DNA of 63,431 bases, filler included, from Actinobacteria bacterium UBA7524 (GTDB taxonomy: Bacteria > Actinomycetota > Coriobacteriia > Anaerosomatales > UBA912), in assembly GCA_002478275.1 (NCBI GenBank). It is 3 parts of 3 records of this genome, joined end to end, with 100 filler letters (N's around TTAATTAATTAA, not from the genome) between each part and the next. Parts side by side here need not be neighbours in the genome. Positions count along the whole stretch, not along the records: positions 1 to 26,346 come from DLMY01000053.1; 2 more parts are not named here. One strand, given 5' to 3'. Shown in pieces: positions 18,001-21,000 of the stretch. Positions within the stretch are counted from its first letter, which is position 1. Each line of letters starts with the position of its first letter. The position numbers were made by a program.

Positions 18001-21000
18001 GCCTGATCGCTCCGGGTGACCGTAACCCGCTCACGCTCTATCCGTGGCTCAAGTGGCTGCTCCCGCTGCTTCTGCTCCCGCTGCTCCTGCTGTTCGGGCG
18101 CAAGCGCATCTTCGTCACCGAAGAGACGCTCGAACGTGCCCTCGACGAAGGCAAGGCACGCCTCGTGATCGGCGTGTATCGCAAGCTCCATGCGCTTCCC
18201 GAGGTGGTCGATCGATTCGCAGACACTATGGAAGTCGACGTGCGGATGGGCGACTTCCTGGTACCCGTCCAGATCGCCGAGGAGACCTCTGGGGACGTCG
18301 AGCCGGATGCCGCCGCGCCCGAGACCACGTCTGCCGAGGAGATGCTCGCCCGTGCGGCGGAGCGCAGCAGGATAGAGCGCTTGCTGCTCAGGCGTCATCT
18401 GATCGTATGCGCCGACCCTGCTCAGTGCACGCGGGTCGAGGAACTTAAGGGCAAGCCGGTTTCTTACGAGGAGCTGCTGGAGGAGTACGCCATTGCTGAG
18501 GAAGCTGCGGAGGCGCCTGCTCAGGAGTAGGCCCGCACGCGACAGCGGTACGCCACAAGGACGCCCGGGATCGAACCCGGGCGTCCTCTTCTTTGCGGGA
18601 GGGGGGGCGTCGCAGTGCATAAGACAGAGTGATACAACGCATGGAGATTATGTATAGTTAGTGAAACTGAACGAAGAATTGACGTCTGTTAGTGAATGCA
18701 CTAACATGGCAGTAAGTCGGAAGTGCGTTCATTCACAAGGGGTTGATTTCTTTCGACTGACCGGCGCCGTAAGGCGCTATCCAGGTCAGGGAGGGAGGTG
18801 TGCAACGAATGACCACCAGTATTCGAACAAACAACAAGGAGGGACACGTAGTGAAGAAGATCCTCGTGCTGGTCGTCTTGGCGACCGCGCTGATCGCAAT
18901 CACCGCAGCTCCCGCTATCGCTGAGGGTTACAACGAGTCCGGTGAATACACAAGGGCGAACGGGTACTTCTCGGGTCCTCACGGCGGCTACCAGACGACC
19001 ACGAACAAGTGTGCAGTCTGCCACTCGACCCACTATGCGACGGGCAGCTTCATGTTGTTGAGGGCGAACTCCCGCGAGGCCGCATGTGACTACTGCCACG
19101 GCGGCGGCGGCGGTTCGACCATCAACATCCAGATGGACAACGAGTACAAGGACATGTCCGATCCGACCACCCAGACCACGGGTATCGCAGAATTCGATGG
19201 CGGCTCTGGACTCGGAACGGGCCACACGCTCGGTTACGACGGTCTTGCGCCGGCTGACATCAAGCCCGCGTACGAGACCGGCGGCTTCGCATGCTTCGAC
19301 TGTCACAGCCCGCATGGCAACTCCGCCCGGATCATCGGCGTCATGGCCAACCCGGGTCGCGCGGTGGGCACCGACAACGTCGTCATCCCCATGAATCAGC
19401 CGCCGTATATCGGCAACTCGGTTGATGGTATCGTGAACAGCTCCGCTGAGTGGGGTATCGACCCCGTGTTCGGCAACTTCAAGTGGTTCGGCGATCCCTG
19501 GTCAACCAATCCTGCCGCTCGTCCCGCTGACGACATCGCAGGGGGCCGACTGATATACCGCCCGATCTATCCTGCGGGACGCTTCATGCTTCTGAAGGAC
19601 CCGCACAGCACGGCGAAGGAGGGTCAGCCTGACACGGCTACCCCGATCAGCGTCTACGGCGACGTGACCGCGCTTGCGACAGACGGCCTGAACAAGTTCG
19701 CCATCAACTGGGACGAGCCAATGGGTCCCGCTGACGGCGGATACGGTGGTGGCCAGGACAACGACAACGACAACGCGTTCCTGTTCGCTCCTGCCTCTGG
19801 CACGAGTCCGGACGGTACGGGTGGGTTCGGTTCTCTGTCTGAGTTCTGCACGGACTGTCACGACGGCACAGCCGGCGCTTCGACTCAGCCGGCCGAGGTC
19901 TATCACAGCACCGAGGGCACGTACACGATCGCGTACTCCCACGATGCTCAGCCTCGCCATTGAGCACGTCAGATGCCTCTCGGTACCGATGAGGATGGAA
20001 CTGACGACAACGAAGGCCCGCACTGCCGCAACTGCCACACCGGCGCGAATGATTGCTTCACGTGCCACACCAACGACGACCGCTTCCAGCCTGCAGCGTT
20101 CTCTGCGGCCGGTGTAGCGACGCGTGTCGATGTGTCCTCGGCTTACACCGCCGTGACCGACGCGCAGGTCGGCAACCGCAGCAACTGGACACCTCAGGCC
20201 TCTTACCGCCAGAGTGCGGTGGCTGGCTCAGCGATCTCCGATCCTTGCCTCGACGGAGGCTTCAGCTTCCCGCACCGCACCCTTGGCTACAACATGCTCA
20301 AGGACGAGCTGTGGGGTGTTGACTTCGACGGCCAGGCGATCGCTGCAGGTGTCGCTCGTACGGCGAACGGCAACACGCTCGACATGATGTCGGGTGTTGC
20401 AACGTCGACCGGTACTCCGCGTCCGGCTGACGCCAAGCAGGCGTACGTGACGTCTGACTGGTACTACTACGTCGAGACCCGCAACGACACCTCGATCATC
20501 CCTGCAGTCCAGGGTGACAACGGTGCGTTGGTCGGTCAGGCGGCCGAGAACCTCGACTCCGTCTGTATCGACTGCCACGGTGACGCTACGTACTGGAACG
20601 GCGACGACGATTCCCTGTACGTGGACAAGGCCGGCAAGGCTGTCCCGTACGGCACCTATGGCCATGGTGACACCTTCGGGTGGGAGCTCCTGCTCAAGGG
20701 CCTGCCGTAGGCCTCTCGTAGCATCGCGAGTCTGCAAGTCAGACTCAGCACGGAAGAAGGGTCCCGGGTCGATCCCGGGGCCCTTCTGTGTTTCCGGAGC
20801 TCGCCGGGTGATCACAGACCGGCTTTCTCCGCAGTACGGAGCAGACATCGAAGGCAACGAAGGGAGCCGAGAACTGTGAGAGGGAGAGTGACCTTTGTTG
20901 CGTCCTAAGAACCGTTAAGGTGTCCTAATCTGCCGTTCATCGGATACCCAGAGGGGCATAAACGGCCCGGCATGACCGCTCGTCAGATACCCCTTGTGGT

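Follow-up and report, generated by a model that had tools for sequence, protein, structure and literature searches.

The window analyzed here is a stretch of 63,431 nucleotides (filler included) from the genome of Actinobacteria bacterium UBA7524 (GCA_002478275.1), in which two neighboring reading frames encode parts of a multiheme c-type cytochrome. This raises the question of whether the two frames are a single gene in which an in-frame TGA is read as selenocysteine (Sec), and if so, what role such a residue could have in a cytochrome.

Two reading frames form a single gene

The ORF listing contains two ORFs in the same frame, 18800..19963 and 19973..20710, which are separated by a TGA. Reading from 18809 to 20710 on the plus strand with the TGA as Sec gives a single protein of 633 amino acids with only one recoded codon, U385, in the context YSHDAQPRH-U-ARQM (Table 1). 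The genome-wide survey's note had read the two gene calls (g00893 and g00894) as one gene whose codon 385 encodes Sec, and the alignments bear this out: the TGA is aligned with Cys in a paralog, and its column is kept in all 21 orthologous loci. The adjoining Cys paralog named in the same note aligns unbroken across the TGA, with TGC at the Sec column. As read by eye, a GGAGG is located about 10 nt upstream of the ATG at 18809, while no ribosome-binding site precedes the ATG at 19973; the piece that begins there has three CxxCH motifs in translation but no signal peptide, as had been claimed. The TGA codon is an ordinary stop locally, ending 12 of the 18 genes in the same part of the window, and a global reassignment of TGA was therefore rejected. 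The terminator-like hairpin that follows the upstream NHL-repeat gene suggests that the cytochrome gene is placed on its own transcript. Among public sequencing runs, one DNA run (perhaps the source sample) and no RNA run was listed with the locus.

Table 1. Features of the cytochrome gene and its surroundings; positions count along the window.
Feature	Position	Strand	Basis
Membrane-anchored decaheme cytochrome, weak NrfH-like stretch, conserved upstream partner	14369..16105	+	domains, locus comparison
Conserved TPR protein	16262..16975	+	10/10 loci with upstream DNA
Conserved NHL-repeat protein, two hydrophobic segments, acidic C-terminal tail	17025..18530	+	11/11 loci
Terminator-like hairpin, 12-bp stem, 3′ of NHL gene	18558..18587	+	consensus scan only
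Two sigma-70-like promoter matches	18629..18707	+	consensus scan, 9/12 positions each; not functional evidence
Shine-Dalgarno-like GGAGGGAGG, about 10 nt 5′ of ATG 18809	18790..18798	+	by eye
Whole gene, candidate 633-aa heptaheme c-type cytochrome selenoprotein	18809..20710	+	read-through translation, paralog and ortholog alignments
Predicted signal peptide, residues 1-38, likely cleavage AIA/EGYN	18809..18922	+	predicted from sequence
In-frame TGA, Sec385, motif SHDAQPRH-U-ARQM	19961..19963	+	translation; paralog, ortholog and homolog alignments
Part after the UGA: C406, C416 and C586 CxxCH; Cys480; His489; C-terminal GWELLLKGLP	19964..20707	+	alignments
SECIS-like element	19967..20006	+	folding, covariation across orthologs, Sec versus Cys/Leu copies
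True stop TAG	20708-20710	+	read-through translation
Terminator-like hairpin and T-run, 3′ of cytochrome gene	20766..20783	+	consensus scan
Tandem Cys paralog, 697 aa, 7 CxxCH, TGC at Sec column	21160..23253	+	alignment
TIGR04190 B12-binding radical SAM protein	23571..25349	+	641.2 bits, cut-off 500; 7/9 loci
UbiE/MenG-type demethylmenaquinone methyltransferase	25349..26092	+	8/9 loci

Conservation and distribution of the selenocysteine codon

The TGA is present in the identical column in all 21 orthologous loci that span the Sec site, from 21 genomes of the order besides the one studied here, and the peptide is strongly conserved on both sides of it. Coding conservation runs on in frame past the UGA, where C406, C409, H410, C416, C419, H420, C480 and H489 are invariant. 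A TGA is found again at the Sec column in two genes from another class of the phylum, which are 38-41% identical. The family had been assigned to the Anaerosomatales and allied Gram-positives, but in a sample of 401 genomes its occurrence outside the order was confined to two genomes of one other family in the same phylum. Some of the MAG records carry the labels “Eubacteriales” and “Slackia”, which are names given by the submitters.

Sec and Cys copies are adjacent to each other in the present window and also in the other class, where both Sec genes have a Cys neighbor (G210 and G195). In a quick IQ-TREE phylogeny with a midpoint root, the adjoining Cys paralog belongs to a separate, deep clade that contains only Cys forms. 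With this paralog as the query, the ESM Atlas returned only generic multiheme clusters, with scores of at most 0.89.

All 81 short homolog clusters (at most 450 aa) among those listed stop exactly at the QPRH that precedes the Sec site, and public records name the shortened product “multiheme c-type cytochrome”. The matches listed also include 39 long homologs, three of which likewise end at QPRH, while the Sec column is covered by the other 36 and holds Cys in 28 of them, Tyr in 4, Arg in 2, and His and Leu in 1 each. Thus, the family does contain both Sec and Cys forms, as had been stated, but the earlier proportion of 29 Cys in 31 sequences does not hold: residues other than Cys or Sec are commoner than this, at 8 of 36 rather than 2 of 31. 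Since these eight proteins carry Tyr, His, Leu or Arg, the fold can serve some function without a Cys or Sec at this column. A set composed of Cys, Sec, Tyr and His would be as compatible with an axial ligand as with a catalytic residue.

A SECIS-like hairpin follows the UGA

The inner hairpin of the SECIS-like element, at positions 19976-19994, has seven base pairs (CCUCUCG-GUAC-CGAUGAGG) with a single bulged U and starts 15 nt after the U of the UGA; in the outer stem, CGUCAG is paired with CUGACG. A hairpin of 7 bp is present 15-18 nt past the U of the UGA in all 22 genes from the order, including the one in the window, and one also follows the UGA in both genes from the other class. That the hairpin is kept by compensatory changes had been proposed before and is substantiated by the class B register, in which all 63 cells are paired and five of the seven pairs are changed on both sides; its covariation score was reached by none of 500 shuffles, and slid controls paired in only 16-49%. 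Pairing reaches 93.7% of the cells in the class A register, where two pairs are compensatory.

The folding energies of Sec copies were -15.7, -20.5 and -17.0 kcal/mol, as compared to -5.7, -9.6, -14.3 and -8.3 kcal/mol in relatives with a Cys or Leu codon at the site, in which the hairpin is weaker or absent. The z-score of the hairpin in the window against shuffled sequences is just -1.08, and the case for a SECIS element is thus comparative rather than energetic. No Rfam family matched within positions 19900-20100.

Selenocysteine machinery in the genome

As in the earlier survey, selA, selB and a tRNA-Sec were not found in the bin, which is 83% complete. None of the 27 tRNAs identified with aragorn in the bin is specific for Sec, and the best match to RF01852 (43.4 bits, below the gathering score of 47 bits) was rejected as a tRNA-Ser. 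However, the bin contains a selD fragment of the Sec type at a contig end (SKAG-U-AAKWGPGDL), and two fdhA-like genes in it carry the canonical Sec site (HQARI-U-HSSTVAGL), which mostly removes the objection raised by the missing genes. Besides that of the cytochrome, the selenoprotein genes in this genome include those for SelD and two FdhA-like proteins, and their hairpins have a spacing similar to that of the cytochrome hairpin and G-rich loops of 4-5 nt. SelB had been cited in support because relatives with the cytochrome also encode it. Indeed, 20 of the 21 other carriers score above the cut-off for SelB, but since it is also present in 115 of the 146 genomes of the order, its presence is compatible with Sec insertion without discriminating. 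Taken together, the locus very probably encodes a real selenoprotein, as judged from sequence comparisons.

Features of the heptaheme protein

The protein contains seven CxxCH motifs, four before the TGA (C68, C93, C162 and C347) and three after it (C406, C416 and C586), and scores 29.9 bits with Paired_CXXCH_1 (cut-off 20.6). It has only seven CH dipeptides, every one of them within a CxxCH, and thus no eighth site of the CX15CH type. Around the predicted signal peptide cleavage site, A36, A38, G40 and Y41 are nearly invariant in the family and N42 is invariant. The alignment of 56 sequences shows only six invariant histidines outside the motifs (H58, H75, H139, H169, H378 and H489), as compared to seven hemes. 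The lone Cys480 is placed in the stretch C-x-D-G-G-F-S-x-P-H-R-T-L-G, which includes the invariant His489, and is itself invariant in 56 of 56 sequences, including those with Tyr, His, Leu or Arg at the Sec column. Lys296 is also invariant (56/56), Met109 nearly so (55/56), and R383 and R387, located on either side of the Sec site, are conserved in at least 90% of the aligned sequences. The C-terminal GWELLLKGLP was considered as a general sorting signal, and this was rejected because it is restricted to two paralogs of the genome.

The positions of Sec385, Cys480 and the hemes could not be taken from the AlphaFold2 models, whose quality was poor both for the whole protein (53 aligned sequences, pLDDT 53.8, pTM 0.56) and for residues 335-633 (73 sequences, pLDDT 52.3, pTM 0.43). 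A Foldseek search of the PDB with a low-confidence model gave no match at E≤0.001, and the best hit of a VIA-align fold search (Z 3.1) covered the signal-peptide helix alone. Searches of the PDB with the sequence and the family profile matched no solved structure and returned noise only (E 0.29 and 0.52).

A conserved gene module upstream of the cytochrome

The order decaheme, TPR, NHL and heptaheme cytochrome is conserved, with the decaheme and TPR genes in 10 of 10 loci and the NHL gene in 11 of 11. The last of these is the gene that had been reported upstream as a 6-bladed beta-propeller; of such a propeller, only the NHL repeats were seen. The true start of the decaheme protein is probably located about 230 codons into the ORF. 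The TIGR04190 gene had been reported to follow in 9 of 11 relatives, a count that has to be lowered to 7 of the 9 loci with downstream DNA, and this gene is more likely tied to the quinone methyltransferase that follows it than to the cytochrome. The island around the gene also contains ResB, CcsA and Rex, as well as cytochromes with 7, 14 and 11 hemes.

Comparison with known heme selenoproteins and related systems

A 2026 review of prokaryotic selenoproteomes lists three families of heme-c selenoproteins, ExtKL/MccSep, GSU2204 and Otr (PMC13188914). MccSep from Geobacter sulfurreducens (ExtKL, GSU2937-2936; NF040886) is described as a multiheme selenoenzyme with polysulfide reductase activity, which has five conserved heme sites, Sec in a D-G-U-P loop, and a His/Cys-ligated heme beside the catalytic Sec, with Cys as the ligand of heme 2 (PMC13510729). 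Of the three, it is the sole one characterized so far (August 2026), and it brought to light a new selenium-heme chemistry for sulfur respiration. None of the three heme-c selenoprotein models (NF040886, NF041027 and TIGR04315) matches the protein in the window at E≤10, nor did NF040886 or any PDB chain link it to MccSep/ExtKL. The earlier statement that the two are unrelated in sequence thus stands at the level of models rather than of a direct alignment. No description of a selenocysteine heptaheme family was found in the literature, taken apart from the supplements of PMC13510729 (data S1 and S2) and PMC9686372.

Like MccSep, the protein is a multiheme c-type cytochrome that is predicted to be exported and has one UGA-encoded Sec with a hairpin on its 3′ side; in both cases, the gene has been annotated as two ORFs and both Sec and Cys forms occur. 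Both also have a strictly conserved lone Cys in addition to the Sec or Cys; in the case of Cys480, a place next to the Sec and a role as heme ligand are putative. The two differ in that the protein in the window has seven hemes rather than five, a length of 633 aa, and the motif R-H-U-A-R rather than D-G-U-P, and in that it belongs to monoderm Actinomycetota (MccSep occurs in Desulfobacterota and Nitrospirota) and has NrfH-like decaheme, TPR and NHL proteins as partners. Since no sequence relation was seen, the MccSep mechanism can be extended to this family as an analogy only. As far as their descriptions go, the octaheme proteins of the Otr family (TIGR04315) and the CXXCH proteins of the GSU2204 family (NF041027) share the CxxCH motifs and a single Sec, but they differ in heme number (eight in Otr) and in the taxa in which they occur.

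Methanococcus has a pair of hydrogenase isoenzymes with Sec and Cys, and as in that case both copies are present in one genome, here side by side. Unlike that pair, the neighboring Cys copy belongs to its own deep Cys-only clade. OcwA, a secreted monoderm cytochrome with multiple hemes, is the last member of an extracellular electron-transfer chain; it contains hemes that are not bis-His-coordinated and has no Sec. The cytochrome studied here resembles it as a predicted secreted multiheme protein of a monoderm and would share the terminal place in such a chain and the non-bis-His hemes, while there was no detectable match in sequence or fold, for which the models are too poor to judge. Terminal reductases of the OcwA type in Gram-positive metal reducers (Thermincola potens) are named in PMC9686372.

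Alternative explanations

It is extremely improbable that the TGA is a true stop. In that case, the locus would encode a four-heme cytochrome of 384 aa followed by a 3′ ORF that is separate or dead, or else the gene would be a pseudogene or the result of misassembly. The products of 351-427 aa annotated by gene callers and NCBI would agree with this, as would the absence of selA, selB and tRNA-Sec from the bin, but a stop accounts neither for the TGA column in 21 of 21 orthologs and two distant genes nor for the conserved peptide beyond it with its three heme sites. It is also contradicted by the lack of a signal peptide and ribosome-binding site for the 3′ piece, the Cys in paralogs, the covarying hairpin and the other Sec genes in the genome. 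If the Sec is real, one alternative, to which we give a very slim chance, is that Sec385 and Cys480 coordinate a metal ion beside an open active-site heme for the reduction of an oxyanion, e.g. sulfite, which would resemble MccA. This is an octaheme sulfite reductase with eight hemes, including one at a CX15CH site, in which two Cys hold Cu(I), and the spacing of its copper ligands is similar to that of Sec385 and Cys480. The invariant Cys and the Sec or Cys are located 95 residues apart, surrounded by conserved Arg, Lys and Tyr, and one heme lacks an invariant distal His. However, the family profile found neither MccA nor any other PDB chain beyond noise at E≤10, there is no eighth heme site, and Cys480 is also kept in proteins with Leu or Arg at position 385.

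There is a small chance that the seventh heme instead has Sec385, which relatives replace by Cys, Tyr or His, as its sixth (axial) ligand. This would form a natural His/selenolate heme of low potential and leave Cys480 with another role. The shortage of one invariant His relative to the number of hemes fits this, as does a column 385 that is mostly composed of possible iron ligands (Sec, 28 Cys, 4 Tyr and 1 His, against 1 Leu and 2 Arg). Yet Leu and Arg forms do exist, Cys480 is an equal or better candidate for a ligand other than His, Met109 and Lys296 are candidates as well, and we know of no natural His/Sec heme. His/Cys hemes are known from multiheme enzymes in sulfur metabolism, according to PMC13510729. 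A slim chance is given to the explanation that Sec385 forms a selenenylsulfide with Cys480 or a partner protein, as a redox switch or protective site in a plain electron-transfer cytochrome of an extracellular Fe(III)-reducing pathway. This would be consistent with the homologs that have neither Sec nor Cys at the site and with an island of multiheme cytochromes, ResB/CcsA and Rex, but the Sec site is the most conserved family-specific motif and Sec is retained across two classes. Moreover, Sec is costly and normally retained only if it is catalytic, which also argues against a switch. In its favor, the island is similar to a gene cluster of Parvivirga hydrogeniphila for which a role in Fe(III) reduction has been proposed (PMC9686372), and NHL proteins are described as accompanying multiheme cytochromes in several electron-transfer clusters.

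A candidate terminal oxidoreductase

We consider it rather probable that the gene encodes a Sec-decoded, exported heptaheme cytochrome with a reactive center at the end of a chain from menaquinol through the decaheme protein. Under this explanation, the UGA at codon 385 would be decoded as Sec with the help of the SelB-type SECIS hairpin that begins 15 nt downstream, the protein would be exported by the Sec-dependent pathway, and its seven hemes would be attached by ResB and CcsA of the same island. It would then act outside the cytoplasmic membrane of a monoderm actinobacterium as the redox enzyme in which a short chain ends. Electrons may pass from menaquinol to the membrane-anchored NrfH-like decaheme protein and on to the cytochrome, with the TPR and NHL proteins as a putative scaffold, and the cytochrome is probably a terminal oxidoreductase that this conserved module feeds.

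Within the protein, the N-terminal part with four hemes may serve as a generic electron wire, and the family-specific C-terminal part may hold the reactive center. Here, Sec385 (Cys in paralogs), which follows a His and has a conserved Arg on either side, could cooperate with the invariant Cys480 at the one heme that lacks an invariant second His ligand. That Sec385 is a redox-active catalytic residue at a heme center is put forward tentatively, at somewhat less than even chances. If MccSep is taken as an analogy, the selenolate would most likely attack a chalcogen substrate such as polysulfide or S0 as a nucleophile, and the hemes would then drive the reduction, although a chalcogen substrate of the polysulfide type is in itself rather doubtful. 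It is distinctly improbable that the selenolate is bound to the heme iron or within bonding reach of it, as a His/Sec heme or a Sec/Cys480 pair, independently of MccSep. If this were true, it would be a second invention of selenium-heme chemistry for respiration, in a terminal reductase placed outside a monoderm membrane.

The cytochrome is the first member of a small family of selenoproteins, hitherto undescribed, from anaerobic actinobacteria of the subsurface. Set apart from the known families at the level of models, it adds a further family, by the same measure unrelated in sequence to MccSep, to the very few heme-c selenoproteins. Current annotation shortens the gene everywhere, in the short clusters listed as well as in the NCBI products of 367-374 aa. 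The family offers a clean Sec/Cys pair, a covarying SECIS element and a fixed gene module, and the residues found at one site (Sec, Cys, Tyr, His, Leu and Arg) form a natural series for probing the role of selenium at a heme center. The Anaerosomatales are a deep-subsurface order of actinobacteria, of which one cultured member reduces Fe(III) and the other S0 and thiosulfate, and the terminal enzymes of this respiration are described as not known in PMC9686372. The heptaheme cytochrome offers a concrete candidate for one of these enzymes, which would serve in the respiration of Fe(III) or sulfur.

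Selenocysteine codon of the heptahaem cytochrome

The table-11 ORF listing divides the cytochrome locus into two ORFs in one frame. When TGA is read as selenocysteine (Sec), they form a single protein of 633 residues with one recoded codon, U385, and seven CxxCH sites, four upstream of the TGA and three downstream. GGAGG lies about 10 nt 5' of the start, and the N-terminus is, from its sequence, a typical signal peptide (…KKILVLVVLATALIAITAAPAIA/EGYN). The ATG chosen by gene callers for the second ORF has no GGAGG-type site upstream, and the piece starting there lacks a signal peptide. 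Export is a precondition for c-type cytochrome maturation. The TGA reading and the placement of the ribosome-binding site and signal peptide bear out the claim of the genome-wide survey's note that g00893 and g00894 are one gene for a secreted heptahaem cytochrome.

Coordinates of features in the window and, where a contig is named, in this genome (G000) or the genome with a Leu form (G054)
Feature	Position	Strand	Remark
Cytochrome island	1442-12403
Decahaem ORF	14369-16105
Terminator-like hairpin	18558-18587		flanks Sec gene upstream
First ORF	18800-19963
Sec cytochrome gene	18809-20710	+	start ATG 18809; TGA 19961-19963; stop TAG 20708-20710
Second ORF	19973-20710		start ATG 19973
Terminator-like hairpin	20766-20783		flanks Sec gene downstream
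Cys paralogue	21160-23253	+	697 aa
Similar 5' parts of paralogues	18809-19369; 21160-21720
GWELLLKGLP	20681-20707; 23224-23250
TIGR04190 and UbiE/MenG pair	23571-26092
selD fragment	G000:C37:55908-56099		N-terminus only
FdhA-like gene	G000:C23:10315-11100	-	one in-frame TGA
FdhA-like gene	G000:C9:707-1480	+	one in-frame TGA
Multi-stop family copies	G054:C2:17899-21666

The adjacent paralogue, also with seven CxxCH sites, aligns unbroken over the TGA and has cysteine, encoded by TGC, at the Sec column, the alignment column of codon 385 (YSHDSQSRG-C-ARAQ versus YSHDAQPRH-U-ARQM). Over the first 187 residues the two paralogues share 76% identity, against only about 40% beyond, which could be due to gene conversion of the 5' part; past residue 187, some 130 extra residues are inserted in the Cys paralogue.

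A read-through query against 146 genomes of the order gave, in 21 genomes besides this one, strong matches containing a single in-frame TGA. Once extracted and aligned, all 21 loci had the TGA in the identical column, inside …QPRH-U-AR[QST]M, and conservation persisted 3' of it (GPHCRNCH, C-x-DGGFSxPHRTLG, ENLDSVCIDCHGD, GWELLLKGLP). This count leaves out two loci truncated before the site and a further one (L044) that does not align as a family member. GWELLLKGLP, the invariant C-terminal motif of the family, is confined in this genome to the two paralogues. The G054 locus has leucine at the Sec column; beside an intact copy, G054 also has family members broken by several in-frame stops (one by 2 TGA, 1 TAG and 2 TAA, another by 3 TGA), which are likely decayed paralogues.

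Among 401 sampled genomes of the phylum, the sole carriers of this protein family found beyond the order are two members of a single other taxonomic family (G195 and G210, from another class), each with a Cys copy and a TGA copy in tandem. Their TGA copies, at 38-41% identity, again place the TGA at the Sec column (SQPRH-U-ARQM and NSRH-U-SRSM), so that the shared column noted earlier in relatives holds for 21 of 21 orthologous loci and two distant genes. The earlier description of a new family in Anaerosomatales and allied Gram-positives stands as to the family but is not shown for the allied Gram-positives, the carriers found beyond the order in this sample being these two genomes of the same phylum.

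The best 120 of 167 matches in the 5.8-billion protein set were examined. Among the matches listed, all 81 of at most 450 aa stop at …QPRH, as do 3 of the 39 longer homologues; the other 36 have Cys (28), Tyr (4), Arg (2), His (1) or Leu (1) at the Sec column. The non-Cys forms, put at 2 of 31 in the survey, are thus 8 of 36 among these matches. TGA is an ordinary stop in the local genes, terminating 12 of the 18 in this part of the window; that the TGA at codon 385 is a true stop is nevertheless very unlikely, given its fixed column, the conserved sequence beyond it and the hairpin described below.

SECIS hairpin

A 7-bp hairpin is present in 22 of 22 order-level genes, the present gene counted, starting 15 nt (register A) or 18 nt (register B) past the U of UGA, with G-rich loops of 4-5 nt (GGUA, GGGA, CCGGGU). 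In register B (9 sequences), 63/63 cells are paired, 5/7 pairs show both-side changes, and the covariation score is reached by 0/500 shuffles, slid controls being 16-49% paired. The corresponding values in register A (9 sequences) are 93.7%, 2/7, 8/500 and 21-57%. Differences between the stems go along with differences in the encoded peptide (ILNPGDS, ILSPGGT, TLNPGGS), and the pairing therefore does not simply follow from an unchanging peptide. In the two distant genes, too, a hairpin starts at 15 nt, a C-G pair of one being U-A in the other. The compensatory changes reported by the survey, also where the peptide differs, are thereby recovered.

As a control, the 45 nt 3' of the Sec-column codon were folded for each gene. 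Sec and Cys copies gave -15.7 and -5.7 kcal/mol in this genome, -20.5 and -9.6 in G195, and -17.0 and -14.3 in G210; G054, with no Sec copy, gave -8.3 for its Leu copy. Taken alone, the hairpin of the present gene is unexceptional against shuffles (z = -1.08), and its SECIS region matched no Rfam family.

Capacity for Sec decoding

As the survey had reported, SelA, SelB and tRNA-Sec were not found in the 83%-complete bin, where the best matches to SelB were EF-Tu and other GTPases. Yet contig C37 ends within a Sec-type selD, with an in-frame TGA in the active site SKAG-U-AAKWGPGDL, and two FdhA-like genes have theirs at the canonical HQARI-U-HSSTVAGL, with hairpins 11-18 nt after UGA and loops like those of the cytochrome hairpins. 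SelB scored above the cut-off in 115 of the 146 genomes and, in line with the survey, in 20 of 21 other carriers, the exception being 80% complete; because SelB is so widespread, Sec use is the rule in the order. SelA, SelB and tRNA-Sec are most likely encoded in the 17% that was not assembled.

Family identity and evolution

The only Pfam signatures, both generic and both N-terminal, were Paired_CXXCH_1 and cytochrome c7, and NCBIfam at 1e-3 gave no match. The available text of a 2026 review (PMC13188914) names three haem-c selenoprotein models, NF040886 (ExtKL/MccSep), NF041027 (GSU2204) and TIGR04315 (Otr type), none of which matched the protein at E<=10. No PDB chain was found with the protein or the family profile. 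By every test run, the family thus appears independent in sequence of MccSep, the multihaem selenoenzyme of Geobacter sulfurreducens, as the survey had held. A literature search of main texts retrieved no description of a Sec heptahaem family.

When 1.84 billion cluster representatives were searched by profile, 59 proteins passed E<=1e-30 and 208 passed E<=1e-10; many of these are two gene halves called separately, and the family is therefore small. Public records, from MAGs labelled Coriobacteriia or Anaerosomatales, name 367-374 aa proteins "hypothetical protein", "cytochrome c3 family protein" or "multiheme c-type cytochrome".

A quick maximum-likelihood tree with a midpoint root contained two Cys-only clades (18 and 5 rows) and a third of 30 rows (SH-aLRT 100), in which the Sec genes are basal and 4 Cys, 4 Tyr, 2 Leu, 2 Arg and 1 His forms are nested. 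Under midpoint rooting, Sec looks ancestral in this clade, with several losses.

Gene neighbourhood and proposed function

Positions 1-26346 correspond to C30:1-26346, 26447-56188 to the whole of C35, and those from about 56289 to part of C40; gene order is not readable across the N spacers (26347-26446, 56189-56288). The gene lies in a cytochrome island with Rex, ResB, CcsA, cytochromes of 7, 14, 11 and 10 haems, three NHL-repeat proteins and TPR proteins. Its upstream section comprises Rex, TPR, NHL, the 7-haem cytochrome, ResB, CcsA, the 14- and 11-haem cytochromes and a second NHL gene, and resembles a cluster of Rex, biogenesis and multihaem genes that the available text of PMC9686372 proposes for Fe(III) reduction in Parvivirga hydrogeniphila; the other cultured member of the order is described there as a S0 and thiosulfate reducer.

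Over 12 fetched loci, the order decahaem-TPR-NHL-cytochrome is a conserved module. The NHL gene is present in 11/11 loci, in agreement with the propeller-type gene noted before, and TPR and decahaem genes each in 10/10 loci reaching that far upstream. Where downstream DNA was available, a UbiE/MenG gene followed in 8/9 loci and the TIGR04190 B12/radical-SAM gene in 7/9; the latter does follow as the survey stated, its count there having been 9/11. The TIGR04190 gene directly precedes the methyltransferase gene, with stop and start overlapping, and the pair recurs in 7/9 related loci. It looks like a quinone-tailoring (methylation) unit rather than one for cytochrome maturation. The decahaem protein combines transmembrane helices with a weakly NrfH-like stretch; in the NHL protein, two segments are hydrophobic and the tail is cytoplasmic. 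The decahaem ORF opens with some 230 Arg-rich codons of non-coding appearance, after which come hydrophobic helices and ten CxxCH sites, so that the true start is probably near 15050.

We infer that the cytochrome would be exported and loaded with seven haems, and that electrons would pass to it from menaquinol via the NrfH-like decahaem. Across 56 aligned sequences, only six non-motif histidines are invariant for seven haems, and thus one haem is not expected to be bis-His. Sec385 itself might be an axial haem ligand, or the site might be an MccA-like metal site, as in the octahaem sulfite reductase. The lone Cys480 is invariant in 56/56, the forms with Tyr, His, Leu or Arg at position 385 included, and Sec385 is flanked by Arg383 and Arg387; a selenenylsulfide switch in a plain electron carrier is a further rival. 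As in our survey, where the AlphaFold model had failed, both new AlphaFold2 models failed, and fold searches with the failed whole-protein model were empty. In MccSep, according to the available text of PMC13510729, a catalytic Sec attacks polysulfide and adjoins a His/Cys-ligated haem, an arrangement that the odd haem, Cys480 and Sec would mirror. From this parallel, the histidine count, the invariant Cys480 and the flanking arginines, we favour a putative reactive centre in which Sec and Cys480 would act at the odd haem, with a chalcogen or some other anion as the substrate. The gene, mis-annotated everywhere as a truncated cytochrome, is a real, well-supported selenoprotein gene and represents a small new haem-c selenoprotein family of Actinomycetota.
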